Below are positions 1,572 through 24,532 of a stretch of 64,000 nt of DNA, piece after piece. The translations under genes were made by a program, and so were the position numbers. Below the pieces are notes generated by a model. The model was not told the DNA's origin. It saw only the letters and a list, made by a program, of their open reading frames with translations, and searched no databases. The stretch lies in contig CAVWCX010000034.1 of NCBI GenBank assembly GCA_963753595.1, forward strand, positions 55,404 through 119,403, written 5' to 3'. The stretch comes from Candidatus Methanoperedenaceae archaeon. GTDB lineage: Archaea; Halobacteriota; Methanosarcinia; Methanosarcinales; Methanoperedenaceae. Position 1 is the first letter of the stretch, and every line of letters begins with the position of its first letter.

Positions 1572-3568
1572 ATACTCTCCGCAGTAATTGTTTTTTGTAC
1601 ATTTTGATTTATATTTATATCATCAGATGTTATTTTTCGCCTTATCGGTACAACTGTTGACAGGCATATCAGGATCCCCAGTATAAGCACATGGAATCCA
1701 CCTAACCACATCAGGAACATCATTGGCATCACCTTGATCTTGACAGTGGCGCTGTCAGCCGTGATGGCCTGGGCTGAGAAATAAAGGTCATCTATACCCA
1801 CCCTGTAAGACATGGGTTTGACATTCGTGCTCTCCTGCTTTGGATAGTGATACATGCGAGCTTCGCCTTTTGTCAGGACTTTCTCGCCTTTCTTATAGAC
1901 ATCAAAATATGCCGCCTGTACATCTCTGTTACCCTGGGTATACTGGTCGATATTCATTAGCTTGAAGTCATAATCTCCAACGCTGTATGTCCCGCCAACT
2001 CGCATATTGTAGGTCTGTGCCTGCTCATATACTACGGCGCCAGCTGCGGCTACGATTATCATAAGGATTCCAATATGGCACATGTAGCCGCCAAAGGTGC
2101 GGCGGTTATTCATGAACGCCCTGTAAATATTCTTCAGGGCTCCTGCATCGTCAATCTTTTTCTGCTTTTTCACTATTCTGGATATATCCAGAAGATGAGT
2201 GGCGCTGACCAGTACGGAGCCGGCAACCGCAACCTGTGCATAAAAATCACGTATACCGATGATGAAAGCGATTATCATTGCAATAACAGACAAAGCAAGT
2301 GGTTTTGTAAAGTTCCTCTGGAGATGGGAAATGGACGCCTTGCGCCATGCTATGAGAGGACATATGCCCATCAGGAATAGAAGCGCTATGCCAAGCGGGA
2401 CATTTATCTGGTTGTAGAAAACCGGACCTACCATCACCTTGTAACCCCTGAAGGCTTCAGATAAGAGAGGATATGTAGTCCCCCATAGCACTGACGTGGT
2501 CGCAGCGATGAATATCCAGTTGTTATAGAGAAAACTTGCCTCACGCGATACGAATGATTCAAAGATATTCTTGCTGTTTATCGATTTGTATTTCCATGCT
2601 ACAAGCGCCAGGGTTGCTGCAAGCACCACTATCATGTAATTGATATAATAATATGCGGTCTCAGACGCACCAAAGGTATGTACAGAAGCGATTATCCCGC
2701 TCCGGGTAAGAAGCGTCCCATATATCGTGAGTTCCCATGTGAAAAGGATGAGCAGGATATTCCAGAACTTCATTCCGCCCTTACGTTCCTGTATCATAGT
2801 GCTGTGATAGAATGCCGTCAGGGTAAGCCAGGGGAGGAATGAAGCGTTCTCAACAGGGTCCCAGCCCCAGAAGCCGCCCCAATTGAGCACAGTATATGCC
2901 CACCAGCTCCCGAACATGTTGCCAAGAGCCAGTCCAAGCCACGCCCACAGCGCCCAGCGGCGTGCGCGGTAAATCCATGTATCATCTGAAAGATAGATAC
3001 CTGCGGCCATCAGGGCGAACGGGATCAATACCCCTGCATAACCCCAGAATAGCGTTGTGGGGTGAAACAGCATTCCAGGGTCCTGGAGAATCGGATTGAG
3101 ACCATTTCCGTCCACAGGCATGAAATCAAGCATCCTGAAAGGACGGGATACTGTAAGCAGCATGTAGAAGAAATAAGCAAGAGTGACAAGGATTATAGGC
3201 ATTGCATGTTTGATGAGGTTATCATAGGATTTCCCACGGACTGCGATTATTGCTATATATATGGATATGAGCCAGGCCCATAGCAGTAATGAGCCATCAG
3301 CGCCAGCCCAGAATCCAGAAATGGTATAGATCAACGACAGGTCAAGGCTGCTGTACATCGCAACATACTCATACTGGAAGTTGCGGGTAATAAAGAGATT
3401 AAAAAGCCAGATTGAAGCAATAGTGGTCAGAACCGCGATACCGACGATGGCGATCCTTGCGCTGCTGAAAAGTTCATCTTTCTTTTTCCATATCCCGATT
3501 ATGTGCGCAATAAGTGCATAAACGGTTAATAACAGTGCGATTATTAATGTTGTTTCACCTAATTCCAT
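1568..3568 (-). CDS. ccmF: Heme lyase CcmF (paralogue 1, canonical)
   Basis: WAGADGSLLLW, GLNPILQ..MLFHP, WWD motif WAYTVLNWGGFWGWDPVENASFLPW, SVHTF, many TM helices. Confidence 0.95.
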   Translation of the reverse strand: MELGETTLIIALLLTVYALIAHIIGIWKKKDELFSSARIAIVGIAVLTTIASIWLFNLFITRNFQYEYVAMYSSLDLSLIYTISGFWAGADGSLLLWAWLISIYIAIIAVRGKSYDNLIKHAMPIILVTLAYFFYMLLTVSRPFRMLDFMPVDGNGLNPILQDPGMLFHPTTLFWGYAGVLIPFALMAAGIYLSDDTWIYRARRWALWAWLGLALGNMFGSWWAYTVLNWGGFWGWDPVENASFLPWLTLTAFYHSTMIQERKGGMKFWNILLILFTWELTIYGTLLTRSGIIASVHTFGASETAYYYINYMIVVLAATLALVAWKYKSINSKNIFESFVSREASFLYNNWIFIAATTSVLWGTTYPLLSEAFRGYKVMVGPVFYNQINVPLGIALLFLMGICPLIAWRKASISHLQRNFTKPLALSVIAMIIAFIIGIRDFYAQVAVAGSVLVSATHLLDISRIVKKQKKIDDAGALKNIYRAFMNNRRTFGGYMCHIGILMIIVAAAGAVVYEQAQTYNMRVGGTYSVGDYDFKLMNIDQYTQGNRDVQAAYFDVYKKGEKVLTKGEARMYHYPKQESTNVKPMSYRVGIDDLYFSAQAITADSATVKIKVMPMMFLMWLGGFHVLILGILICLSTVVPIRRKITSDDININQNVQKTITAESI

Positions 3569-12437: not shown

Positions 12438-14390
12438 TCAAATTCCCCATCCCATGACTCTGGTTTTTTTCAGCGAAAAAAGCCTGGCCTTTATCAGGAC
12501 AATAAAACCCCCGATCATCAAAAAAGTTCCTCCCCAGAGAATATTCACCAGCGGCATGACCTTTGTGGTCAAACTTATCGGAGATTGATTTACCGTATCT
12601 CCATTAGAATGTACTATTATATCCGTGAATAAGGTCCGATGAATAAGGATTTTATGGAACTGGTCTGATCTCTCATTTTTCGTTAAGAACACAGTTCCAT
12701 ATCCATGAAGTAATCCGTTTTTATAAAAATTTAGATCCAGTGCCTGTTCCGATCCATTCACATTATTCACGATTTTATTATTGGCTATCTGGACGCTCCA
12801 TTCCGGATCTATATTTTGTGGGGTACTTAAATCCTTAAGATCATAATCAAGGATACCACCCCTTCCAAAAGATGTGGACACAATTGCACCAAGTATGATA
12901 AAAATAAATCCTGCATGGATCAACGCTATGCCGACATTGTTTTGTGAAAACCGATGTTTGATGCGAAAAGACCTGAAAAATATCCCCCCGGCCACAAGAA
13001 CTGTCATCGAAACATATGGGATGACAGTCCTTGAACCAATGAATTGCACAAGAAACGAAGATCGTTGATAGAAGTCCGAATCCGGGCTAAGAAGTGTGGG
13101 TGTTCCGGGCAAAAATGAGGTCAATGCTGAGATCATGGCCGCTGCAAGCATTATTCGCAGGAGGCTCTCAGGTTTTGCTACTACCTGGAGCATGCAATAT
13201 CCCGTTAATAAAACCAGCAACAGTATAATGGGAAAACTCCAAAAATTATAGAAGTCTTCCGGCATTGGGACAATTTCACCTGATATATTTTCTGAGATAA
13301 TTGAATTAACTGTGCCCCATAAAGGTATGAATGCCAGCAAACATAGAAAAAGAATGGTAGCGTGAAATGAACTTCGCATCGAACTCAGTGACTCTCTTCT
13401 CTGATTTTGAATATTTCTGTCTGGATCCGATCTATTTAAAACCAGGAATAATATTGCGATAATGGCCAGGAACAAAGCCGCAAGCAAGATCCGCCACACT
13501 TCGCTTCCCAGGAAATTGTGTTCCGAGCCGCGCACTCCTTTTCGCGCAAAGAACATTATGAAAATATTGAGAATTAATACGGATGCGGCTAACAGCGGTG
13601 CAGTTGTCCTGTACTCTTTTTCATTTCGCCTGTGTCTTACTATCGCATGCAGGGCGGCGGTCAGGATCAGCCAGGCGGCCAGGGTGCCGGATTGGATAGT
13701 ATCCCATTTCCAGTAACCTTTCCACTCCAGTGTCTCATATGCCCATAATCCTCCTGTCACCATCCCAAGTGATAACATAAGCCAGGATAACCTTCCCCAT
13801 GACCTCGCCGTGCCAGCCCACTCTTTTTCCCCCGAGTACAGATAGGCGGCAGCGGCTGCAAACAGGATGATGCTTGAAGCATATGCAATAATTAACAGCG
13901 GTGGATGGATCAGGAACCATGGGCTGATAAATTTTGGGCTTAAACCTATACCAGAAGATGCGTCTCCATTAAATGCTTCAAGAGTGAGTTGAAAAGGCGA
14001 ATCGACAAGAGTGATCACTAGCAATAAAAATTCTATACCCAGGGTTATACATAGTGTTATCCCGGAAAATCCATTATCCTCCCTGTTTTTTGCATGGAAT
14101 ATTAGAATGCACAACAAGGTCGCCCATGCCAATAATAATTGCATCCCCTGTTTTCCGGCCCACATGGCTGCAACTTTATAAAAAATAGGATATTCCCCGC
14201 CATATACATAGACATAATTTATATGAAGTCCTGCTGAAATAAAGTAGTAAACCAGCAGTAAAACTGCCGATGAAATAGAAATAAACGCCAGGCCAAGCAT
14301 CCAGGAAAAATATTTTTCATTTTTTCGAAGCATTATAGAAACTGCCAAAGCAAAAAATGATACCAATAAAAATATGTTTCCAATATTCAT
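12438..14390 (-). CDS. ccmF: Divergent CcmF-family heme lyase (paralogue 2), co-transcribed with the two multiheme cytochromes
   Basis: MWAGKQG, IHPP, altered WWD motif WAYETLEWKGYWKWDTIQSG, ALHA, SEHNF, LIHAG; starts 2 nt after the cytochrome stop. Confidence 0.85.
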   Translation of the reverse strand: MNIGNIFLLVSFFALAVSIMLRKNEKYFSWMLGLAFISISSAVLLLVYYFISAGLHINYVYVYGGEYPIFYKVAAMWAGKQGMQLLLAWATLLCILIFHAKNREDNGFSGITLCITLGIEFLLLVITLVDSPFQLTLEAFNGDASSGIGLSPKFISPWFLIHPPLLIIAYASSIILFAAAAAYLYSGEKEWAGTARSWGRLSWLMLSLGMVTGGLWAYETLEWKGYWKWDTIQSGTLAAWLILTAALHAIVRHRRNEKEYRTTAPLLAASVLILNIFIMFFARKGVRGSEHNFLGSEVWRILLAALFLAIIAILFLVLNRSDPDRNIQNQRRESLSSMRSSFHATILFLCLLAFIPLWGTVNSIISENISGEIVPMPEDFYNFWSFPIILLLVLLTGYCMLQVVAKPESLLRIMLAAAMISALTSFLPGTPTLLSPDSDFYQRSSFLVQFIGSRTVIPYVSMTVLVAGGIFFRSFRIKHRFSQNNVGIALIHAGFIFIILGAIVSTSFGRGGILDYDLKDLSTPQNIDPEWSVQIANNKIVNNVNGSEQALDLNFYKNGLLHGYGTVFLTKNERSDQFHKILIHRTLFTDIIVHSNGDTVNQSPISLTTKVMPLVNILWGGTFLMIGGFIVLIKARLFSLKKTRVMGWGI

Positions 14391-14392
14391 AA

Positions 14393-16630
14393 CTATCTAA
14401 GTTTCCGATATAGGTAAATCAATGTCAATACTCCAATAATAACAAATACCAGTTCCATATATTCGTATAAAAACCATGAACTCTCTTTTTTTAATATAAC
14501 AAGAGGCGCAGGCTTCACATCCCCCCATCTTCCTTTTGAATCCTGCGCATGTATTGAAACTATATGCGTTCCCTCTTTCAGGCCTGAGGTATCCACCTGT
14601 GCATAAGCCTCCCTCACCTGCCCTCCTGCCAGTTCTTTGCCCAGGGTCAAATTCCTGCCCCTTCCCCCTTCTCCAACCATGTCAATAAAATACTCAACAT
14701 TTGTAATGTTCGCCTCCCAGTCTGAGACCGCAAGGACGCTTAAGGAGATATTCTCGCCTGCATAGTTTTTCAGGGGGAGCATGATTATGTCCTTTATATA
14801 TGGTTCTGAATTTGATCTCTGGAGAACATGCAGGGCAATAGGAGTATCTCCGCCGTGGCAGAGCGTGCAGTTCTGTGCTGCCCTGTGCATAGGCTGGGTC
14901 AGGTTGGTGGCATTAAACGGAGGCTGGCTGCCATATCTAACATGACAATCAGAGCATTTGTTGATCCTGCTTCCATTGCTTGAGTTAAACACTCCAGGTG
15001 ATTGTATCGCTCCCGTGGGGAATTCGCTATAGTGGAATCTCTCAGTTCCAGTGGCGTTATGGCACGAATCGCATGATATGGTTCTTGATTCATTTGCTTT
15101 TGGCCCGGATTTTAAAAAATCTTTATCTTCTCCGGTCAGATTGTGGAACTGGTTTTTATTTTCATTATGGCAAACGCCGCAGGTGAGGGTTTTGTTTATC
15201 TTTTCTACAACAAATGAGCTATAGTGGGAGGCGTCATAACCCAGATGGCAGGTATTGCATGTAACATTTTGCAGGGTTTGTTTTATATGGGTATTATGGC
15301 AATCCGTGCAACTGGCAGGGCTGCTGTCCGTTGTCCTGCCCACAGGTCTCTCCCATACCAGAGAAGGCTTATGAAACCTGCTTATCCTTGATGAATCATG
15401 ACAGGTCTGGCAGTTTATTTTCATTCCGATTGCAGTATGTTCGGTCTGGTTACCATGGATAAGCCTTGGGATCTGGACCGCTGGCTTATAGGGATAATCT
15501 CCTTCGACACCGTGACATCCATAGCAGGATGAAGAATTGCCCTGTGAGATATTCTGATAAAGGATATTTTTAGTAAGAGAAAAGTTGTGCAAAGAAAAGT
15601 TAGAAGTTGTAATGTCACCAGTATTGGTATCAGCACTGACTAAAGTACTGGAAGATGTATGGCATTTTTCACACGTATAACTGGAATTTACTTTGATAGT
15701 GTTTGCACGTTCCTCAGGCGCGCCAGGATAATGCGTACGAATCTGATCTTTTGCCCCGTATTTTTTTACAGCGTCTGCTGAAGTATGGCATCTGACGCAT
15801 GTTTTTTCAGAAGGAACAGTGAGATTTGCGTCATGAAGCGTTCTAAGTGCACCTGAGGCATGGCAATCAGCGCACGACCCATTCTTTGTATGGGAATACA
15901 CCTGGGTTGCATTGCCCCACACCGTAGCATTGGCACTGTCTTTATGGCAGGATGAACAATCTGTTGAATTGTATATTACCTTCCCGCCGTAATGAGATAT
16001 ATTAGCTCTCGTATTATTAACTCCTTTTTTTACAACAGCATTGCTGTGGCAGTTCTCACAGCTCGTTTTGACTGTCAGTTTGTCTCCTGCTTTTGTATGA
16101 CCGCTAATGAGAGGGGCATTGTAAGCAGATCCGAATGAATGACACATTTCACAGGATTTCGGGGACCTGTAGTCTTCGGGATGCCCTGACGGCTTGCTCC
16201 CGTTACCGTGGCATGCCCAACATGCTTTATTAATGGGATCAACTGCCACTGCGTTTTCAGTCCTGTTATTGAGTTTTGCATGAACACTCTTCCTGAAAGC
16301 TTCAACATCGACTTGTTTTGGCGCAACTCCTCCCAGGCGGTGGCAGCCTGCACAATCAGGAGAAAAAGTTCCATTCATCAGGGCAGGTTCATGAAATGTT
16401 CCCGGAACACCACCGACAAGGACATCCTGGCCTGTACTTAATTCAGAACCTGTGTAATTACCGATAGTCTCATTGTAACCGATGATCACTGTCTCGTTTG
16501 ATATCTGGCGCACATCTTCGATGACAATAACTACATCAGGAGCTGAACTATCAGCGGCTGTTGAAATATTAATAACAACGATTAAAATGGCGGCCAAGAG
16601 TAGGGATTTCAGGTCTGTTTTCATCCTCAA
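14393..16630 (-). CDS. Multiheme c-type cytochrome, 16 CxxCH, signal peptide, C-terminal Ig-like domain and TM anchor (ATG at 16624 is the probable start)
   Basis: Counted CAGCH, CWACH, CEMCH, CENCH, CSSCH, CADCH, CVRCH, CEKCH, CYGCH, CQTCH, CTDCH, CNTCH, CGVCH, CDSCH, CSDCH, CTLCH. Confidence 0.92.
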   Translation of the reverse strand: MRMKTDLKSLLLAAILIVVINISTAADSSAPDVVIVIEDVRQISNETVIIGYNETIGNYTGSELSTGQDVLVGGVPGTFHEPALMNGTFSPDCAGCHRLGGVAPKQVDVEAFRKSVHAKLNNRTENAVAVDPINKACWACHGNGSKPSGHPEDYRSPKSCEMCHSFGSAYNAPLISGHTKAGDKLTVKTSCENCHSNAVVKKGVNNTRANISHYGGKVIYNSTDCSSCHKDSANATVWGNATQVYSHTKNGSCADCHASGALRTLHDANLTVPSEKTCVRCHTSADAVKKYGAKDQIRTHYPGAPEERANTIKVNSSYTCEKCHTSSSTLVSADTNTGDITTSNFSLHNFSLTKNILYQNISQGNSSSCYGCHGVEGDYPYKPAVQIPRLIHGNQTEHTAIGMKINCQTCHDSSRISRFHKPSLVWERPVGRTTDSSPASCTDCHNTHIKQTLQNVTCNTCHLGYDASHYSSFVVEKINKTLTCGVCHNENKNQFHNLTGEDKDFLKSGPKANESRTISCDSCHNATGTERFHYSEFPTGAIQSPGVFNSSNGSRINKCSDCHVRYGSQPPFNATNLTQPMHRAAQNCTLCHGGDTPIALHVLQRSNSEPYIKDIIMLPLKNYAGENISLSVLAVSDWEANITNVEYFIDMVGEGGRGRNLTLGKELAGGQVREAYAQVDTSGLKEGTHIVSIHAQDSKGRWGDVKPAPLVILKKESSWFLYEYMELVFVIIGVLTLIYLYRKLR

Positions 16631-16631
16631 C

Positions 16632-19600
16632 TCATCCTTTTACAAATATGTTCGCGATTTTCAGGCGCAAAATCGTGATATCCTTATCATTCAATGTAGT
16701 GTTGTATGTGAAGTATTCCCCTTCGGTTACAAATTCCTCTTTGACTTTTATATTGTCCTTTGTAAGAACTAACCATACATTCTTATTATCTGGACTGAAA
16801 TCCTTCATATAAAGTTCATAACCGTTTCCCATGTTCCAGGAATTATTTGAATAAAGCATTTTTTTATCCGCGGTATCAAAATCAATATCTATCGGACTTA
16901 ATGTTACATTCTGTTCATCCTTTTTGAGTACGGAATATTTCTGTCCGTCAGGCCAGTCAGCCCTGTATTCTTTGACATGGCAGGCATAGCACTGCACACT
17001 GGTCGTTTCAGTATGTATATGCGTTGGCACATACCCTTTGAATGTTATTAAGCTGACCATACCACCGTAGAAAATTTCAGGTATCTGCATATCTATAATG
17101 GTTTTATTTTCTCCTTCCTGCACCAACCTGTTTTCATATTTGAAGCCGCCCCCTTCCGTAACCAGCTCATCTTTTATTAATAGCCCATTATAATATAATT
17201 CTACCCATATGGATTTTCCTTCTTTATCTATATCCGCGATAGATATACTGTAGTTTTCGTTAATTCGCCAGGTATCATCTGAAACAAGCTTTTTTTCGAT
17301 GCTCGATAGACGTATTGTTTCCCTTGGGTCAGGCGGATTGCCCCATTTTTGGCTTGTTCTTTCGTTCTGGTGGCAGCTTATACAGTCCTTTGTATCTATT
17401 GTCGGATATTTTGCAAAATGAGATACGCTGGAATTTACGGTTTTACCAGAATAAAGGACATCATTAATATGGCAGGTAGTGCAGGCAGGTGTTCTTATCT
17501 GGCTGCTTCCCGGACTATGTGAAGAAATGTGCCCTCGCTTTATTTTCCCGGTCAGGTTAAGCTCACCCTCGATGTGGCATGATGAACAGGTGTTCGGAGG
17601 CTTCCCAATATCAGGATGGTCATTCGGTGCCGTTATAATATTTGAATGGCACGCCCAGCACGCCCTATCCAGTTCAGACCTGGCACCGTTTAAGTTTGCG
17701 TGCAGGCTCTTATTGATAGTTGACTCGCTTACTTTATTTGAGGCAAAGCCATCCGTTCCATGGCACTTTACGCAATTCGATAATGTATAACCCGTCATGT
17801 TAACAATGGTGGAATTATGGAGCCTGCCTGTGCTGTGGCACGAAGAGCAGCTCAGACCACCATTATGGGTTATATTAGTTCTTGAAATTTTATTGAATAC
17901 ATCCGAGAATTCAGAGGCAGGGTTCTGGTGGCAGTATGAGCAATTGGTACTGGTTTTATTTAAATCCAGCATATCAGTCCTGTTCTTGCCATAGTGAGAA
18001 ATAGTTGAATTTACAGTGCTGGCATTGAAATTTATCATCTGCGATTTTCTATGGCATAGCTGGCATGTTGCATTTACGGTGATGTTAACAGCATGGGTCG
18101 TATGTTCCGTCGCCTCAGGCGAACTGAAGAGTACAGTATTGTTGACATGGCATGTACTACAGGTATTTGCAGGTTCGGATAGGCCTGGATGCGTATCAGG
18201 CGCTTCACTGGAATTGGAGTGGCATGCCCAGCAGGCCTGATTGAGATTAGAGCTGGAACTCGCATTATTCAGGTTTGCATGGATGCTCAGGTTCATCACG
18301 GTTTCATTTATTTTCTTCGGAGCAAAGCCGCCGGTGCCGTGGCACTGCACGCAATTCGATAAACTATATCCCTGCATATTCGCAATGGTGGAATTATGAA
18401 GCCTGCCTGTTCCATGACAAGAAGAGCAGCTCAGGCCGCCATTATGGATGATGTTAGTCCTTGATGTTTTGTTGAAAACATCCGAGAATTCAGAATCAGG
18501 ATCCTGGTGGCAATATGAACAGTTTGTATTTGTTTTATTTAGATCAATCATGTCTGTTCTTTTCTTGCCATAGTGAGAAATTGTTGAATTCAGAGTACTC
18601 CCGTTGAGGTTTATCATCTGCGATTTGCCATGGCATAGCTGGCATGAGGCGTTCACAGAGATATTAGTTGCATGGAGTGTATGCTCTGTAGCTAATGGAG
18701 ATTTGATTTTTCCAGAATCGTTCACGTGGCAGGAAGCACATGTGAGCGCAGGCTTATGCATGGGATGTTTTTTCGGTGGTGTTGTTGAATTGGAATGACA
18801 TGCCCAGCATGCACGATTGAGGTTTGAGCTTGAATCATTTATATTAGAATGTATGCTCTGGTTCATGATATCCTGATTTATTTTCGGAAAGAGCCCTCCC
18901 ATCATTTCTTCACCCAATGCCTTACTATTGGTTCCGTGGCATCTCAGACAGTTTGATATTACTCCCATACCCATGCCGCCTGTCCCTGAAAGAGATGAAA
19001 TTGCAAATAGAGATAACGACTCTACGTAGTTAATCAAATTATTTTCTTTTGAATCAACCTCAGTTGGCAAAGTCACCCATGTTGAATTAGTATAATGAAT
19101 GATCGAAAGGTTGCTCTCGTTTACTTTTGTAAATTCTGCGTCATTATAAGTCACTTTAATATTTACACCACTGTAAGAATAGTTCCTGGCGGATATGCTG
19201 AAAAATTTAACAGGGCTCCCTGGCGGTGATGAGTCGGGCATGTCGTTACTGTTCACCTCAAGAGTTAATTCCGTTTTTTCTCTTCCAATAAAAGAAACAG
19301 ATATGGTTTCATCTCCCATTTCTTCGCAATCGTGCGATTTCACTGTCTGGACAGTAGCATTATGGATATGTTCTGAGTTATTTTCAGAATGGGAACTGAT
19401 TGCAAATAAAGACAGAGACCTGGCAGATGCATTCAATATGTTTTCTTCCTCATTTACATCCGTAGGCAGCATGGTCCACGTGGAATTTTCATAAATGAAA
19501 AGACGCAGGTCTTTCTCATTGATCCCATTTAAGTCCATTTCACAGTACGCTGCACTGATAGAGATGGATTCAAAAGATAGGTTTTGGGCACCCGGTCTGA

Positions 19601-19922
19601 AAAACCTGGCATGCAAACCATGCGGATGAACATCTACTGGATTATTTTTCTCAAAGTCCTCAATATTTACCGTTACATCTTGGGTACCGTTCTGTATAAT
19701 GGCAGCTGTAATGGTCAGGTTCGCATGAGCGTGCTCCGTTGAATTAGTAGAGTTTTCAGTCGAATTAGAATGGGTATGGTTCGATCGGTCCGCAGATTGC
19801 TCATTAATTGATGAATCGTAAGAAGAAGTGTTCGCAGCATTTACCACCGATGGAATAAACAGCAGACCCAATAGTATAATACCTGCAACCTGAGTTGCAT
19901 GAAAATTATTGTTTCTGTTCAT
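16632..19922 (-). CDS. Multiheme c-type cytochrome, 18 CxxCH, two N-terminal PGF-pre-PGF-like beta domains and C-terminal S-layer (DUF1608-like) modules
   Basis: 18 CxxCH counted; WxxLPT...SLSLFAISS occurs twice; DIDKEGKSIWVELYYNG and DNKNVWLVLTKDN are S-layer-type motifs; signal peptide, no C-terminal anchor. Confidence 0.92.
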   Translation of the reverse strand: MNRNNNFHATQVAGIILLGLLFIPSVVNAANTSSYDSSINEQSADRSNHTHSNSTENSTNSTEHAHANLTITAAIIQNGTQDVTVNIEDFEKNNPVDVHPHGLHARFFRPGAQNLSFESISISAAYCEMDLNGINEKDLRLFIYENSTWTMLPTDVNEEENILNASARSLSLFAISSHSENNSEHIHNATVQTVKSHDCEEMGDETISVSFIGREKTELTLEVNSNDMPDSSPPGSPVKFFSISARNYSYSGVNIKVTYNDAEFTKVNESNLSIIHYTNSTWVTLPTEVDSKENNLINYVESLSLFAISSLSGTGGMGMGVISNCLRCHGTNSKALGEEMMGGLFPKINQDIMNQSIHSNINDSSSNLNRACWACHSNSTTPPKKHPMHKPALTCASCHVNDSGKIKSPLATEHTLHATNISVNASCQLCHGKSQMINLNGSTLNSTISHYGKKRTDMIDLNKTNTNCSYCHQDPDSEFSDVFNKTSRTNIIHNGGLSCSSCHGTGRLHNSTIANMQGYSLSNCVQCHGTGGFAPKKINETVMNLSIHANLNNASSSSNLNQACWACHSNSSEAPDTHPGLSEPANTCSTCHVNNTVLFSSPEATEHTTHAVNITVNATCQLCHRKSQMINFNASTVNSTISHYGKNRTDMLDLNKTSTNCSYCHQNPASEFSDVFNKISRTNITHNGGLSCSSCHSTGRLHNSTIVNMTGYTLSNCVKCHGTDGFASNKVSESTINKSLHANLNGARSELDRACWACHSNIITAPNDHPDIGKPPNTCSSCHIEGELNLTGKIKRGHISSHSPGSSQIRTPACTTCHINDVLYSGKTVNSSVSHFAKYPTIDTKDCISCHQNERTSQKWGNPPDPRETIRLSSIEKKLVSDDTWRINENYSISIADIDKEGKSIWVELYYNGLLIKDELVTEGGGFKYENRLVQEGENKTIIDMQIPEIFYGGMVSLITFKGYVPTHIHTETTSVQCYACHVKEYRADWPDGQKYSVLKKDEQNVTLSPIDIDFDTADKKMLYSNNSWNMGNGYELYMKDFSPDNKNVWLVLTKDNIKVKEEFVTEGEYFTYNTTLNDKDITILRLKIANIFVKG
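17640..18960 (-). repeat. Intragenic tandem duplication of a hexaheme module (579-bp / 193-aa period)
   Basis: gcaattcgat at 17772 and 18351; protein repeats NSTISHYGK.RTDM.DLNKT.TNCSYCHQ.P.SEFSDVFNK.SRTNI.HNGGLSCSSCH.TGRLHNSTI. Confidence 0.85.
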
Positions 19923-20196: not shown

Positions 20197-20361
20197 ATGA
20201 CAAACAAAGAAATAAATCCTTATGTAAGCCTTATCTGCACCCACTGCGAATTCTTCAAGGAAGATGATTTCGAGCTTGAATGTGCAGCATTCAAAGTATT
20301 AAAAACCATGCTTCAGGAAGGCAGGATAAAACCAGCTGAGATAAAAGATGTCTTCAGGTAA
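20197..20361 (+). CDS. Small Cys-containing protein (54 aa), coupled to the radical SAM gene
   Basis: MTNKEINPYVSLICTHCEFFKEDDFELECAAFKVLKTMLQEGRIKPAEIKDVFR; overlaps the rSAM start at 20348. Confidence 0.65.
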   Translation: MTNKEINPYVSLICTHCEFFKEDDFELECAAFKVLKTMLQEGRIKPAEIKDVFR

Positions 20362-21520
20362 ATATCACGTGCTTGCGCCGGGCTATATCCTGCGCGAGCT
20401 TGAATCCCCTGTTGTATATAATATCATTAAAGACGAGTTGTACGAACTTGACGAGGAGGCGTTTCATTTTTTAAAAAAATGTAATGGAGGGAATCCTTTC
20501 CCGGATCTGCTCTTGAATGGCAAAAGCGATGAAAATATTGATTTCATGCAGGATGAAGGGATCATCCGGTTGGCAGAAGGAAAGGAGATAAGAAAAATTA
20601 AAACTCACAGATCACCGATCCCTTCACTACGTTATCTTCTTTTAAATATTACGAATATATGCAATCTCGCCTGTAAGCATTGCTATCTCCAGTATCCAGG
20701 AAAACTTGAGATAGATCTTGATGTTTTTGAAAAAGCGGTATCGCAATTTGAAGAAATTGGCGGTTTAAAACTCATGATCTCTGGTGGTGAACCGCTGGTC
20801 CATTCAAGATTCTGGGAACTTATGGAGATACTTCCATCGTATGAATTAAGAGTGGTTGTCCTGTCAAACGGAACCCTGATAGACAGGAACACTTCAAGAA
20901 AATTATCCGATTATGTTCATGAAGTGCAGGTCAGTATCGACGGTATCTATTCTCATGATTTACTGCGAGGAAAAGGTTCGTATGCAAAGTCAATGAAAGG
21001 TATTTCCAACTTAAATGAATACGGGATACCCATTTCGATCGCTACCATGGTACATAAATTCAATACAGGTGAATTTGAGGAGATGGAAAAGCTTTTTTCA
21101 AAGACAGGAGCAATTTCATGGAGCGTTGATGTTCCATGTATCGTGGGTTCACTTTGTGAAAACAAGGATTTTGTTCTTGATTTGAAAGAAGCCGCCAATT
21201 TTTTGGAATACGGTTTTGGTGCCGGATCACATGAAAGCACTGGTGATCATACCTGCGGTTCTCACTTATGTTCGGTATCGCCCGATGGTTCAGTCAGTAA
21301 ATGCGGATTTTTTGAAAATGAACCTGCAGGGACTGTTAATGATCTTCGGTCTGCATGGAAAAACATTTGCATGTCCTACTTATGGAAACTTGATGAACTT
21401 GAATGCAAGGATTGCGCTGTACTTTCCGAATGTAAAGGCGGATGCAGGTTCAGGGCAAAGCAATACAAAGGAATACTTGCGCCTGACCCTTTGATGTGCC
21501 AGGTTAATTTACATTTGTAA
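20348..21520 (+). CDS. Radical SAM/SPASM domain protein with N-terminal PqqD/RRE-like extension
   Basis: CNLACKHC, SGGEP, VQVSIDG..HD..RG; SPASM-type CGSHLC..PDG.V.KC...CKDC.....CKGGC; N-terminal VVYNIIKDELYELDEEAFHFL. Confidence 0.9.
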   Translation: MSSGKYHVLAPGYILRELESPVVYNIIKDELYELDEEAFHFLKKCNGGNPFPDLLLNGKSDENIDFMQDEGIIRLAEGKEIRKIKTHRSPIPSLRYLLLNITNICNLACKHCYLQYPGKLEIDLDVFEKAVSQFEEIGGLKLMISGGEPLVHSRFWELMEILPSYELRVVVLSNGTLIDRNTSRKLSDYVHEVQVSIDGIYSHDLLRGKGSYAKSMKGISNLNEYGIPISIATMVHKFNTGEFEEMEKLFSKTGAISWSVDVPCIVGSLCENKDFVLDLKEAANFLEYGFGAGSHESTGDHTCGSHLCSVSPDGSVSKCGFFENEPAGTVNDLRSAWKNICMSYLWKLDELECKDCAVLSECKGGCRFRAKQYKGILAPDPLMCQVNLHL

Positions 21521-21697
21521 ACCAAAAGCTAACTGAAAAAATAATTGACATTACGCATAATATGGATATACTTTACATACACCGTAAAGTATATGGTGGA
21601 ACAGAAGAAATACACCTTATAAATAAATCTTTAACAAAGGAAAACGCAAGATAAAAACATATCTACCAATATCGATTAAACTAATAGGAAAAACCTT

Positions 21698-22177
21698 ATG
21701 AGAACCAAAAAACTGTTGTCCATACTTATCCTGGCATTAATTTTAGCATTCGCATATTTCAGTTATCAAACTGCACTTAATAATTTTACCTTGAGCGATA
21801 AGAACAACAGCTATCTTGGTGGCATAAAATTTCACCGCGCAGCAGAAGGACTCGAAGAAAGTTTCCAGATAGCACAGCAGGAAAATAAGCCTGTCATGAT
21901 GTATTTCTGGGCGATCTGGTGCCAGTATTGTGCAAAATTCCAGACAGAAACTCTGGGAAATCCCCAGGTCAAGAAAATCCTTGAGGAAGATTATCTTCTT
22001 GTTGCGATGGACCTCGATATTGACAGGGAAGTCGCCCAAAAATATGGGGTGAGTTACCCCCCATATCTTGTTTTCATGGACCCGAAAGGAAATGTCCTCG
22101 AGAGAGTTCCAGGGGCGGTTGACGCGGATTATCTGCTTCCAATTGTTACCCGGGTAAGAGACCAGGTCAGGAGATAA
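21698..22177 (+). CDS. Membrane-anchored thioredoxin-fold protein (CcmG/SoxW-like)
   Basis: N-terminal TM, WCQYC, YGVSYPP; 3 nt upstream of ccmF paralogue 3. Confidence 0.88.
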   Translation: MRTKKLLSILILALILAFAYFSYQTALNNFTLSDKNNSYLGGIKFHRAAEGLEESFQIAQQENKPVMMYFWAIWCQYCAKFQTETLGNPQVKKILEEDYLLVAMDLDIDREVAQKYGVSYPPYLVFMDPKGNVLERVPGAVDADYLLPIVTRVRDQVRR

Positions 22178-22180
22178 AAC

Positions 22181-24532
22181 ATGATACCATTAGGAGACAT
22201 ATTACTTTATGCAAGTCTTGCAATTAGCGTTCTTGCACTTGCTGGATTGCTGTTGAAAGACCGGAAAAATATAGATGTTCTGGACCGGTATGCAACACCT
22301 GCAATATTACTGGTGGCAGGGCTTCTCACATTCGCTTATCTTCTCCTTACTTATTATTTCGTAACAGGCAACTTTGCCTTTGATTATGTCTGGCAGTACT
22401 CAAGCAACGACCTTCCTCTTGTTTATAAACTATCCGGTACATGGGCGGGGCAGCCAGGTACATACCTCCTCTGGGTGTGGGTAGTATTCCTGTCAGCGGG
22501 ATGGCTTGCATGGACTACAAAACATAATACCTCGCTTGCAAGAAGAACCCAGATAATTACACTTATCACAGGCATATACCTGATAATTCTTACACTGATA
22601 CAGTCGCCATTCAAGTTAATAATCGACAGGCCTGAAGTTGTTAAATTGATTGCAGATGGGACCCTGACACCTGATTTTGTTCCCGAAGTCGGCAATGGCC
22701 TGAATGCTCTTCTTGTCAATTTCTGGATGATCGTGCATCCGCCTTTTATGTTCATTGGATACGCGACAATGACGATACCATTTGCCGCAGCTATTGTTTA
22801 CCTGCTTACTAAAGAAGATGGCTGGGAAGAACTTGGCAGGCAGTGGACGCGGTTTACCTGGTTGATCCTTGGAATGGGCATAGCAGTGGGCGGAGTCTGG
22901 GCATACCTTGTGCTTGGATGGGGCGGATTCTGGGCATGGGACCCTGTTGAAACGGCTTCGTTCATACCATGGCTTACACTCACAGGTTTCATGCATGCAG
23001 CAGCCATTCACAGAAAGGACAAAACTACATTTTCAATAGCAGCTCCCATGCTTGCTGCGGTTTCATTCATCCTTGTACTATATGCAGCCATCGTTGTTCG
23101 AAGCGGACTTTTCAATTCAGTCCATGCTTTCGGGGATACATCAACCGGAACCCTTCTCATATTGTCCATAGTAATTACATCGATCGTTTCCATCGTCCTG
23201 GGAATGCGTCGTTACTTTGAAGAGCCTGATAAAGTGGAGGAAGACCGCGGGTTCTGGAACAAGACGAATATTTTCTATGTTTCTCTTCTTATGTTCGTGG
23301 TGCTGGCATTCATATCTTTCTGGGGTATTACATTCCCGGCTTTTATCCAGCTTACGCAGGGTCTTAAAGTGGGAGTGGCCTCAGATACAAAGAATTTTTT
23401 TAACGTCTGGAGTTATCCTTTCACGATCATTCTGTTGATGGCACTTGGTTTCTGTCTGACCTACAATGAAAAGAAAAAGGAAGAACAGAAAAGGACATTG
23501 TACATGGTAATTGTTTTGACAATTATAACAATGTTCGCCCGGACTGAAAACTTTTATGTACTTGACCATAGCAGTCCCTTCTGGGTAAGGGAGCCGCCGT
23601 TCTATAAATTGATCGGCAATATCTCGGTAATATCTCTTTTCCCATCCATGATATATGCAACATGGGCAATAATAAAACGAAGTATTGACTATTTGCGGAT
23701 AAAAAGTTTAAGACCAAAGATAAAAGGGATTGGTATAGCGATAGTTCACTTTGGTGTTATATTCATTCTTTTTGGAGCGGTCATTAGCTCAAATTTCACC
23801 GAGAAAATCGAGGGGATAAATATACCCCTTTCGGCAAAAGGAGAAAGTGTAAATGTCGGGCATGGTTATGATATTAAGTTAATTGATTTTACAACACGCA
23901 GCCTCTCCGGCGATGCGCCGGCAGGTGGATTAAAGATATCAGAAATATTCGTAAATCCAGGGGATTATGTAAATAAACCTGTTAAAGTAAGCGGTAAAGT
24001 CAAAGATGTCGCCGTAGTCAAGACTCCACCATCTTTTACTACATATATGGAAATAGATGACGGGTCAGGCAGCCTGTGGGCTGTAGCGCAGGCGGAAAGT
24101 CCCCTGGATATCCGGAAAGGTGAGGAACTTTCCGTGAATGGTTTCATGATGACAAATTTCAGGAGTAACTCAACTGGCAGGACATATGATCTCATCATAT
24201 TCTCAAATCCGGAAGAAATCACCGGTGCGGTTTCCTCAGGCAAATATAAAGTCCAGAGCGTAGAACTTGAAGTTTATAAGGATCAAACGAAAATCGGAAG
24301 CGGAACCGCCGAGTACCTGGAATCAGACGGTGGAAGCGGAACATTCCCGCTTGTAGAGAGCAGCATAACAGGAACGGATGTTTATGTTATTTTCCAGGGT
24401 ATTGGCGGCGGAGTGATCCCTCTTACTCTGCGGATCATACCTGCAGTGAATTTTGCATGGATCGGCATAGTACTCTTCGCGATTGGGATAATACTGATAA
24501 TGGCAGTGAAATCAAGACAAAAAGAAGGATAA
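22181..24532 (+). CDS. ccmF: Heme lyase CcmF (paralogue 3) with an inserted OB-fold-like domain in the C-terminal soluble region
   Basis: WAGQPG, GLNALL..WMIVHPP, WAYLVLGWGGFWAWDPVETASFIPW, SVHAF; insert PGDYVNKPVKVSGKV...IDDGSGSLW...GEELSVNG. Confidence 0.9.
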   Translation: MIPLGDILLYASLAISVLALAGLLLKDRKNIDVLDRYATPAILLVAGLLTFAYLLLTYYFVTGNFAFDYVWQYSSNDLPLVYKLSGTWAGQPGTYLLWVWVVFLSAGWLAWTTKHNTSLARRTQIITLITGIYLIILTLIQSPFKLIIDRPEVVKLIADGTLTPDFVPEVGNGLNALLVNFWMIVHPPFMFIGYATMTIPFAAAIVYLLTKEDGWEELGRQWTRFTWLILGMGIAVGGVWAYLVLGWGGFWAWDPVETASFIPWLTLTGFMHAAAIHRKDKTTFSIAAPMLAAVSFILVLYAAIVVRSGLFNSVHAFGDTSTGTLLILSIVITSIVSIVLGMRRYFEEPDKVEEDRGFWNKTNIFYVSLLMFVVLAFISFWGITFPAFIQLTQGLKVGVASDTKNFFNVWSYPFTIILLMALGFCLTYNEKKKEEQKRTLYMVIVLTIITMFARTENFYVLDHSSPFWVREPPFYKLIGNISVISLFPSMIYATWAIIKRSIDYLRIKSLRPKIKGIGIAIVHFGVIFILFGAVISSNFTEKIEGINIPLSAKGESVNVGHGYDIKLIDFTTRSLSGDAPAGGLKISEIFVNPGDYVNKPVKVSGKVKDVAVVKTPPSFTTYMEIDDGSGSLWAVAQAESPLDIRKGEELSVNGFMMTNFRSNSTGRTYDLIIFSNPEEITGAVSSGKYKVQSVELEVYKDQTKIGSGTAEYLESDGGSGTFPLVESSITGTDVYVIFQGIGGGVIPLTLRIIPAVNFAWIGIVLFAIGIILIMAVKSRQKEG

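Follow-up and report, generated by a model that had tools for sequence, protein, structure and literature searches.

In this work we describe two adjacent genes, A and B, which encode large multiheme cytochromes (MHC) and lie within a stretch of 64,000 nucleotides (nt) of a Candidatus Methanoperedenaceae archaeon (contig CAVWCX010000034.1; hereafter the window). The locus is the known "MHC-B + CcmF2" cluster of anaerobic methanotrophic archaea (ANME), present here in the form of a conserved gene fission. We consider it probable that an ancient fission divided an ANME MHC-B into the halves A and B, and that a β-strand carried by B completes the second S-layer module of A in trans, tethering one half to the other. 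In the main-text passages of Chadwick et al. 2022 (PMC9012536), MHC-B is a single protein, an S-layer multiheme cytochrome that is encoded beside CcmF2 and is proposed to be an electron conduit through the S-layer. The word "split" is applied there only to CcmF3 and to the layout of a figure, and a split of MHC-B goes unmentioned in these passages (section 24; figures and supplements are outside this scope); it is likewise unmentioned in the passages of PMC12180501, PMC10542353, PMC10874420, PMC7082337 and PMC13046784, with the same restriction regarding figures and supplements. The system presented here is a natural and conserved split of a β-sandwich domain within this known conduit, in which the missing strand is carried by a partner that is predicted to be exported.

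The two halves of the cytochrome

Gene A, which represents the outer portion of the divided MHC-B-type cytochrome of ANME, occupies positions 16632..19922 of the minus strand, on which all the features of A and B given below are located, and encodes a protein of 1096 amino acids (aa) with a signal peptide and 18 CxxCH heme motifs. The N-terminal region of ~320 aa is devoid of heme motifs, the first CxxCH being found at residue 325; the corresponding region of MHC-B is annotated as peptidase M6-like, and in A the Pfam and NCBIfam profiles yielded no M6 match; what they gave was PGF-pre-PGF TIGR04213 (38 bits) together with weak matches of Ig-like type. A contains two matches to the S-layer family DUF1608 (PF07752), at 80.8 bits where 30 is the cut-off, but each time only profile positions 106-201 of ~259 are covered, so that a full-length DUF1608 domain is absent; TIGR01567 reaches 78.7 bits, which is under its cut-off of 121.9. 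Module 1 (17034..17297; residues ~876-963) corresponds to positions 111-201 of the Pfam profile and to positions 123-212 of a hidden Markov model (HMM) of the DUF1608 copies of the same genome. This module is complete in cis: its final strand, ...IFYGGMVSLITFKG, is seen across the 33 aligned sequences, the chain going on as ..IFYGG-MVSLITFKG, which bears out the extra strand that a preliminary description of this DNA had assigned to it. The two modules are separated by a CYACH heme motif (16977..16991; residues 978-982), which is the last heme of A and is invariant in 33/33 aligned sequences.

Module 2 (16635..16946; residues ~993-1096; Pfam profile 106-190, NCBIfam 72-170) stops at the very end of the protein, ...LRLKIANIFVKG; the C-terminus of A reads ...DITILRLKIANIFVKG and is followed by a TGA codon at 16634-16632. 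Judging from the structure models discussed below, the module ends at the turn that precedes the last strand of the domain. The only hydrophobic segment of A is its N-terminal signal, and the protein is without a membrane anchor; open reading frame (ORF), hydrophobicity and Pfam data thus agree with the earlier portrayal of an anchorless 18-heme protein that breaks off inside its second S-layer module. The number of hemes in A is variable: the window and the orthologue of genome G010 have 18 motifs, and the remaining nine Methanoperedens orthologues that are complete have 12. BLAST offsets reveal in the 18-heme form an additional internal unit of 6 hemes (~190 aa), a heme module duplicated in tandem.

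The fission joint (16625..16634) is composed of the TGA of A and a spacer of 7 nt before the ATG of B. After the stop codon a TTG is found 1 nt on (16630) and the ATG 7 nt on (16624), and the reading frame of B differs from that of A. Gene B, the inner half (14393..16624), encodes 743 aa with 16 CxxCH motifs, the first of them at residue 91, and a C-terminal transmembrane helix (14399-14473; residues 718-742), in accordance with the anchored 16-heme partner that had been postulated. From the ATG, the N-terminus of B reads MKTDLKSLLLAAILIVVINISTA-ADSSAP-DVVIVIEDVRQISNE... and includes a signal peptide (MKTDLKSLLLAAILIVVINISTA; 16556..16624; residues 1-23) that is probably cleaved after ..ISTA, as its sequence suggests, a linker, ADSSAP (16538-16555), that separates the strand from the site where cleavage is predicted, and the proposed donor strand, DVVIVIEDVRQISNE (16493..16537; residues 30-44). 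The claim that the next gene begins 1-7 nt later and has a signal peptide of its own is correct; the strand was also said to follow this peptide directly, and here the six residues ADSSAP intervene.

A CcmF-like heme lyase paralogue ("CcmF2"; PF01578 and PF16327) is encoded 2 nt downstream of B (12438..14390, minus strand). Together, A and B share these features with MHC-B: more than 10 heme motifs (18 and 16), an S-layer domain with a single linker heme, a C-terminal helix and an adjacent CcmF2. They depart from it in that these features are distributed over two ORFs in different frames instead of one polypeptide, with the C-terminal helix on the second polypeptide, B.

The interruption is also present outside this assembly. 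Coverage of the stretch by any single public sequencing run is at most one fifth, and the contigs recovered from these runs are short and come from relatives only; one of them crosses the joint. This contig, of 192 nt, derives from a related strain in an independent run, spans positions 16557-16748, and shows substitutions only, without any indel and with the TGA kept.

Split and fused loci in related genomes

Whole-genome searches across the order (284 genomes) revealed three kinds of loci, and 33 related loci were retrieved for comparison. Including the window, 21 loci from 19 genomes are split; 12 belong to Ca. Methanoperedens (in 10 genomes, among them BLZ2 and M. nitroreducens Mnv1) and 9 to a second family (f3). 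In all 21 split loci the genes A and B are adjacent, the TGA is placed at the same residue, right after VFxx, and at the start of every B a hydrophobic, signal-like segment precedes the strand. Split orthologues are 30-87% identical, and the two split clades share only ~34% identity overall. In Methanoperedens, A ends with ..[IL]F[VSI][KN]G-TGA and B starts 6-10 nt after A (in the window and five orthologues); the c-region of its signal peptide, (I/L/V)-S-x-A then A/T, is kept in 11/12 loci and reads S-S-T then A in one copy of genome G089, and after S-x-A the sequence D/E-x-[IV][IV][VI]IED..[IL]S.E is found. In the 9 loci of f3, A is cut at the same residue (..VFR[GRI]-TGA) and B has a longer N-terminal leader with a hydrophobic segment ending ..APLAPAA, then ..TE[IF]VQ[IL]ED..[IM]SPD. 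The same stop in 21/21 split loci, together with the contig that bridges the joint without an indel, upholds the earlier opinion that the split is not a simple sequencing frameshift.

In contrast, 13 loci from five families, including four Methanoperedens genomes, are fused and consist of one ORF of 2100-3500 aa; 19 of the 284 genomes searched match across the junction without a stop. In the fused ORFs, VFxG leads to the strand within 1-4 residues (~20 in two of them), as in VFIGS-AEIVLSDVRVISDE, and a B-type heme domain follows. Hydrophobic segments are located at the two ends of the fused proteins only, and none is found at the junction. In the alignment, the split and fused forms differ by one insertion of ~32 residues that accounts for the stop, the start, the signal peptide and a short linker. 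The search for fused and identically split orthologues that the preliminary description had called for thus yielded both, 13 fused relatives and 20 further loci split as in the window. Two of the fused Methanoperedens homologues (L022 in G021 and L023 in G013) carry ~16 extra residues (..GTKPAVSGLRLAEYNLANST..) exactly at the split turn, which indicates that this turn tolerates insertions.

The frame of B relative to that of A is not constant. Of the 12 Methanoperedens loci, 8 have the two genes in frame, and in the window and 3 others B is out of frame; even the closest pair, G004/G087, differs in this respect. Since the frame drifts, what is conserved is the existence of two separate translations. 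The CcmF paralogue is found directly downstream in 32/33 related loci, split and fused; in the split form it is kept in the window and in 19/20 related loci.

Three trees bear on whether the fission occurred once or twice, and they do not discriminate between the two. The unrooted tree of the B part is a star of three clades with long branches between them. The CcmF tree, rooted on paralogues, gives a trichotomy, and the approximately unbiased (AU) test does not reject a single split clade (p 0.305). The tree of the junction region, with two MHC-A outgroups, has the topology (g1 split, (f3 split, fused)) with a support of 43, in a place where long branches meet. The two split clades have dissimilar leaders but share exactly the same cut and stop codon. 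A search of proteins of 1302-3715 aa yielded no fused relative of B above ~35% identity at full coverage, which is weak evidence.

Two observations on individual split genomes are worth recording. Genome G089 has three paralogous split A-B-CcmF loci (L029, L030 and L031, on contigs C42, C20 and C40), whose B proteins are 75-84% identical; they recall the "three copies of a 12 heme/S-layer protein" mentioned for Ca. M. manganicus in passages of PMC7082337. In G004, the A orthologue is broken over two contigs (L018/L017; C10 and C50) with a stop in the tail segment, and this tail was left out of the tail alignment and of the junction tree.

The neighbourhood of A resembles one devoted to cytochrome maturation. 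Upstream of A and divergent from it, on the plus strand (20348-24532), the gene at 20348-21520 encodes a radical-SAM protein, that at 21698-22177 a thioredoxin-like protein tethered to the membrane, and that at 22181-24532 another CcmF paralogue, of 783 aa; a third gene of CcmF type is present at ~1661-3541 of the window. A canonical S-layer paralogue with two domains that lies outside the window (G000:C1:64909-66637) contains an in-frame TAG (..ARLGW*GG..) and, right after ..VDSIFSGA, a frameshift. This is the same VFxG turn as that of the cytochrome split, without insertion of a signal peptide; the paralogue has the appearance of a gene in decay or of an error in sequencing.

The missing strand in sequence and in structure models

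The donor strand of B aligns to the strand that comes after VFxG in the 13 fused homologues, and residues E36, D37 and S42 are invariant in the 21 split loci. The column identity of the strand is 0.70 vs 0.64 for B overall; judged by its sequence, the strand is not decaying. The protein A ends at VFxG, where module 1, the 13 fused homologues and the Methanosarcina acetivorans S-layer protein MA0829 go on with a strand, so that module 2 of A, the acceptor in the proposed pairing, lacks its final strand. In both fused forms that were scanned the Pfam S-layer match crosses the junction, reaching profile positions 199 and 216, and the profile of the fused forms aligns to ..VFQGAVDSIA of MA0829, in agreement with the statement of the preliminary description that DUF1608 modules continue past VFxG. 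With the HMM of the DUF1608 copies of the same genome, 5/13 fused segments reach at least 9 residues beyond the junction and the rest stop there. At the equivalent place, the canonical DUF1608 copies of the host genome read ..VFSGQEFQSAFIKGIFQISED.., and the MHC-A-type paralogues ..VSGIIQAKPKNMVILDEVAGISPE...

Two structure models, both of homologues of the window chains, place this strand within the fold. The first is an AlphaFold2 model of a fused Methanoperedens homologue (alignment of 13 rows), in which module 2 has values of the predicted local distance difference test (pLDDT) of 76-93. It contains a hairpin formed by strand 235-247 (..KINVFSAKLDRVF), the turn IGKTP and strand 253-262 (AIVLTDVRLI; block pLDDT 81), the latter starting just past the point equivalent to the fission. 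Given that no later strands are present, the ladder partners of strand 253-262 must be on the side equivalent to A. Residues 163-264 of this model superimpose on residues 390-500 of the MA0829 structure 3u2g with a Z score of 13.3 and a root mean square deviation (rmsd) of 2.2 Å over 102 aligned residues; the next unrelated entries have Z scores of 8.7 or less. The second model is a read-through model of the in-frame chain of the split orthologue of G010, with the TGA treated as a residue (alignment of 21 rows, 8 split and 13 fused). In this model, the last strand of A comprises residues 121-136, the signal peptide is a low-confidence helix and the strand of B comprises residues 170-189 (pLDDT ~84). 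Residues 34-192 superimpose on 3u2g 378-510 (Z score 12.4, rmsd 3.2 Å, 124 residues aligned, all but the insert).

According to the models, module 2 and the strand together have the fold of the β-sandwich sub-domain of MA0829, the cut lies in the hairpin turn, and the sequences of the split pair are compatible with one complete sub-domain. The idea that the strand fills a vacant position in module 2 is therefore sustained to this extent, given that the models place it where the solved DUF1608 domain has it. The proposed docking in trans is thus well supported by homology, the models speaking for compatibility only. None of the outcomes that the preliminary description had listed as refutations was encountered, and three of the checks that it proposed spoke in its favour.

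Several points weigh against docking in trans. The read-through model is that of a covalently linked chain and its alignment contains the 13 fused homologues, so that it reports compatibility and not affinity. The confidence of the models is modest, with mean pLDDT values of 59.8 for the fused homologue (heme parts under 50) and 66.6 for the read-through chain, because the heme parts are not modelled, and the pairing of the strands was deduced from DSSP assignments and superposition ranges. The conservation of the strand is no more than average, 261/708 windows being as high or higher. When the B heads alone were compared with the HMM of 8 canonical DUF1608 copies of the genome, all matches had E > 1 and scattered positions, and such a search is uninformative for a strand of 15 residues; with hhalign, the alignment of module 1 and that of the B heads shared the CxxCH heme motif only. 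Finally, the cleavage of the B signal peptide is deduced from the S-x-A motif, and, with regard to expression in the host, a single contig was recovered from RNA libraries and it lies inside A.

Alternatives, proposed assembly and relation to known systems

We think it rather unlikely that the fission simply gave rise to independent proteins: A would be a free cytochrome or one embedded in the S-layer, with a truncated module that is stable alone or receives a strand from the S-layer protein or from another partner, and B would be a separate cytochrome anchored in the membrane, with the strand packed on its own first heme domain or tolerated as a leftover. In favour of this is the average conservation of the strand; moreover, the read-through model has good confidence for residues 191-211 of B as well, with a short strand at 207-210, and a portion of this region may belong to the fold of B, and the several canonical DUF1608 S-layer proteins of the genome could in principle offer strands. 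On the other hand, A has no anchor of its own, the two genes are adjacent in 21/21 split loci with the CcmF paralogue downstream in 19/20 and the window, and two clades that are only ~34% identical share the strand's invariant E, D and S. In addition, the strand is contiguous with module 2 in the fused homologues and is modelled inside this module, as in the solved domain. A different arrangement, which appears improbable, accepts that the strand complements A and takes the hydrophobic segment of B to be an uncleaved signal anchor, in such a way that B would be held at both ends and the modules of A would be at the membrane surface and not in the S-layer's plane. It draws on the fact that cleavage is read from the S-x-A motif only, and on the f3 proteins, in which the hydrophobic segment is ~25-45 residues from a conserved Met and could be an anchor; nevertheless, small residues at -3/-1 are kept in 11/12 Methanoperedens loci, with A at -1 (T in one G089 copy), and the fused proteins are without a membrane segment at that point of the chain.

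The 8/12 Methanoperedens loci in which B is in frame, with a single TGA between the genes, could recall a codon that is read through or recoded (e.g. as selenocysteine) to give one fused polypeptide. We disfavour this explanation as very improbable, given that the window and 3 loci have B in a frame different from that of A, that the closest pair, G004/G087, differs, and that in such a product the conserved signal peptide would end up as a hydrophobic stretch inside the chain, which the fused relatives lack; furthermore, in this genome (92% complete, 35 tRNAs) Aragorn detected neither a tRNA-Sec nor a tRNA with a tca anticodon. An artefact of assembly or sequencing, or a recent pseudogene, has a negligible probability. 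The abrupt end of A, and nothing more, would suggest it, and it is refuted by the recurrence of the stop at an identical residue across 21 loci and 19 genomes (30-87% identity) and by the bridging contig, in which no indel is observed; both ORFs are also intact, with all their heme motifs.

The reading that we prefer, a split MHC-B whose halves are joined by the strand of B, can be formulated as follows. An ancient gene fission would have occurred in the hairpin turn before the last β-strand of the second DUF1608-type β-sandwich, and the downstream half would have gained a start codon and a Sec signal peptide. Presumably A, B and the CcmF paralogue are co-transcribed, with spacers of 7 nt and 2 nt; both cytochromes would be exported by Sec, heme would be attached with the help of the dedicated CcmF, and B would be anchored through its C-terminal helix. 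Cleavage of the signal peptide after ..ISTA would free the N-terminus of B, ADSSAP-DVVIVIEDVRQIS, and the strand could then pair with the C-terminal strand of A (..LRLKIANIFVKG) and complete module 2. The anchorless outer half, with its 18 hemes and S-layer modules, would thereby be tethered to the inner 16-heme stalk, and the linker heme of A (residue 978) and the first heme of B (residue 91) would regain the spacing that they have in the fused protein. The outcome would be a conduit of 34 hemes from the membrane through the S-layer, along which electrons may be transferred, with a geometry that follows the order of the fused proteins: outer hemes, S-layer modules, 16-17 hemes and membrane helix. 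The domain layout, with one acceptor in A and one donor in B, suggests a 1:1 pair. More tentatively, it could be proposed that in Methanoperedens and in a second family of Methanosarcinales the conduit is assembled extracellularly from two exported halves that are joined only by the donated strand at the S-layer's plane, that the cut possibly arose twice at one and the same hairpin, and that the outer halves (with 12 or 18 hemes, and three paralogous pairs in one genome) are exchangeable or releasable.

S-layer MHCs are the proposed exit route for the electrons of anaerobic methane oxidisers towards metals, electrodes or partner bacteria. A cut that is conserved at one hairpin provides a concrete and testable assembly model, in which an inner anchored stalk and an outer head embedded in the S-layer are connected by a joint of one strand. 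There is also a consequence for annotation, since the "12-heme/S-layer" and "16-heme" cytochromes that are counted separately in passages on Methanoperedens genomes and transcriptomes (e.g. PMC7082337, PMC10542353) may be halves of one conduit.

The resemblance to the ANME MHC-B of the main-text passages of PMC9012536 includes the large size of the MHC, the heme-free N-terminus, the S-layer modules with a single heme between them, the C-terminal helix and the CcmF paralogue downstream; the difference is that in those passages MHC-B is one polypeptide, whereas here and in 20 other loci it is encoded by two genes cut inside module 2, the second one with a signal peptide. MA0829 (PDB 3u2g/3u2h) has the same fold according to the models, with ..VFxG followed by the strand. 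In MA0829 this strand is in cis, and the cytochrome contains only the central sub-domain (~106-201 of 259), twice. Engineered strand-complementation pairs, such as split-GFP (GFP1-10 and GFP11), are also β domains cut at a hairpin turn that receive their last strand from a separate chain; in contrast to these, the split between A and B is natural and conserved. The MtrCAB complex of Shewanella, proposed as a functional analogue in the passages of Chadwick et al. (PMC9012536), is likewise a multi-subunit multiheme wire across the outermost layer of the cell, but its architecture is unrelated, as MHC-B is without a β-barrel sheath and crosses a protein S-layer.

Donor-strand complementation, in turn, is described for chaperone-usher pili and for archaeal threads, cannulae and bundling pili (e.g. 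PMC9715654, 10.1101/2024.12.30.630787 and PMC12337348). As in these systems, a secreted β-sandwich is without its last strand, which a partner secreted separately is proposed to supply with its N-terminal segment; B, whose export is predicted, carries at its N-terminus a signal peptide, a linker of 6 residues and a strand homologous to that of the fused forms. The analogy with pilus donor-strand complementation that was drawn at the outset holds for the mechanism and fails for the polymer, since the pair would be a 1:1 heterodimer. The A-B system differs from these systems in that it would be a heterodimer of two cytochromes and not a polymer, in that neither a chaperone nor an usher is involved, and in that it comes from the fission of a single-chain domain and is not a pilin homologue.

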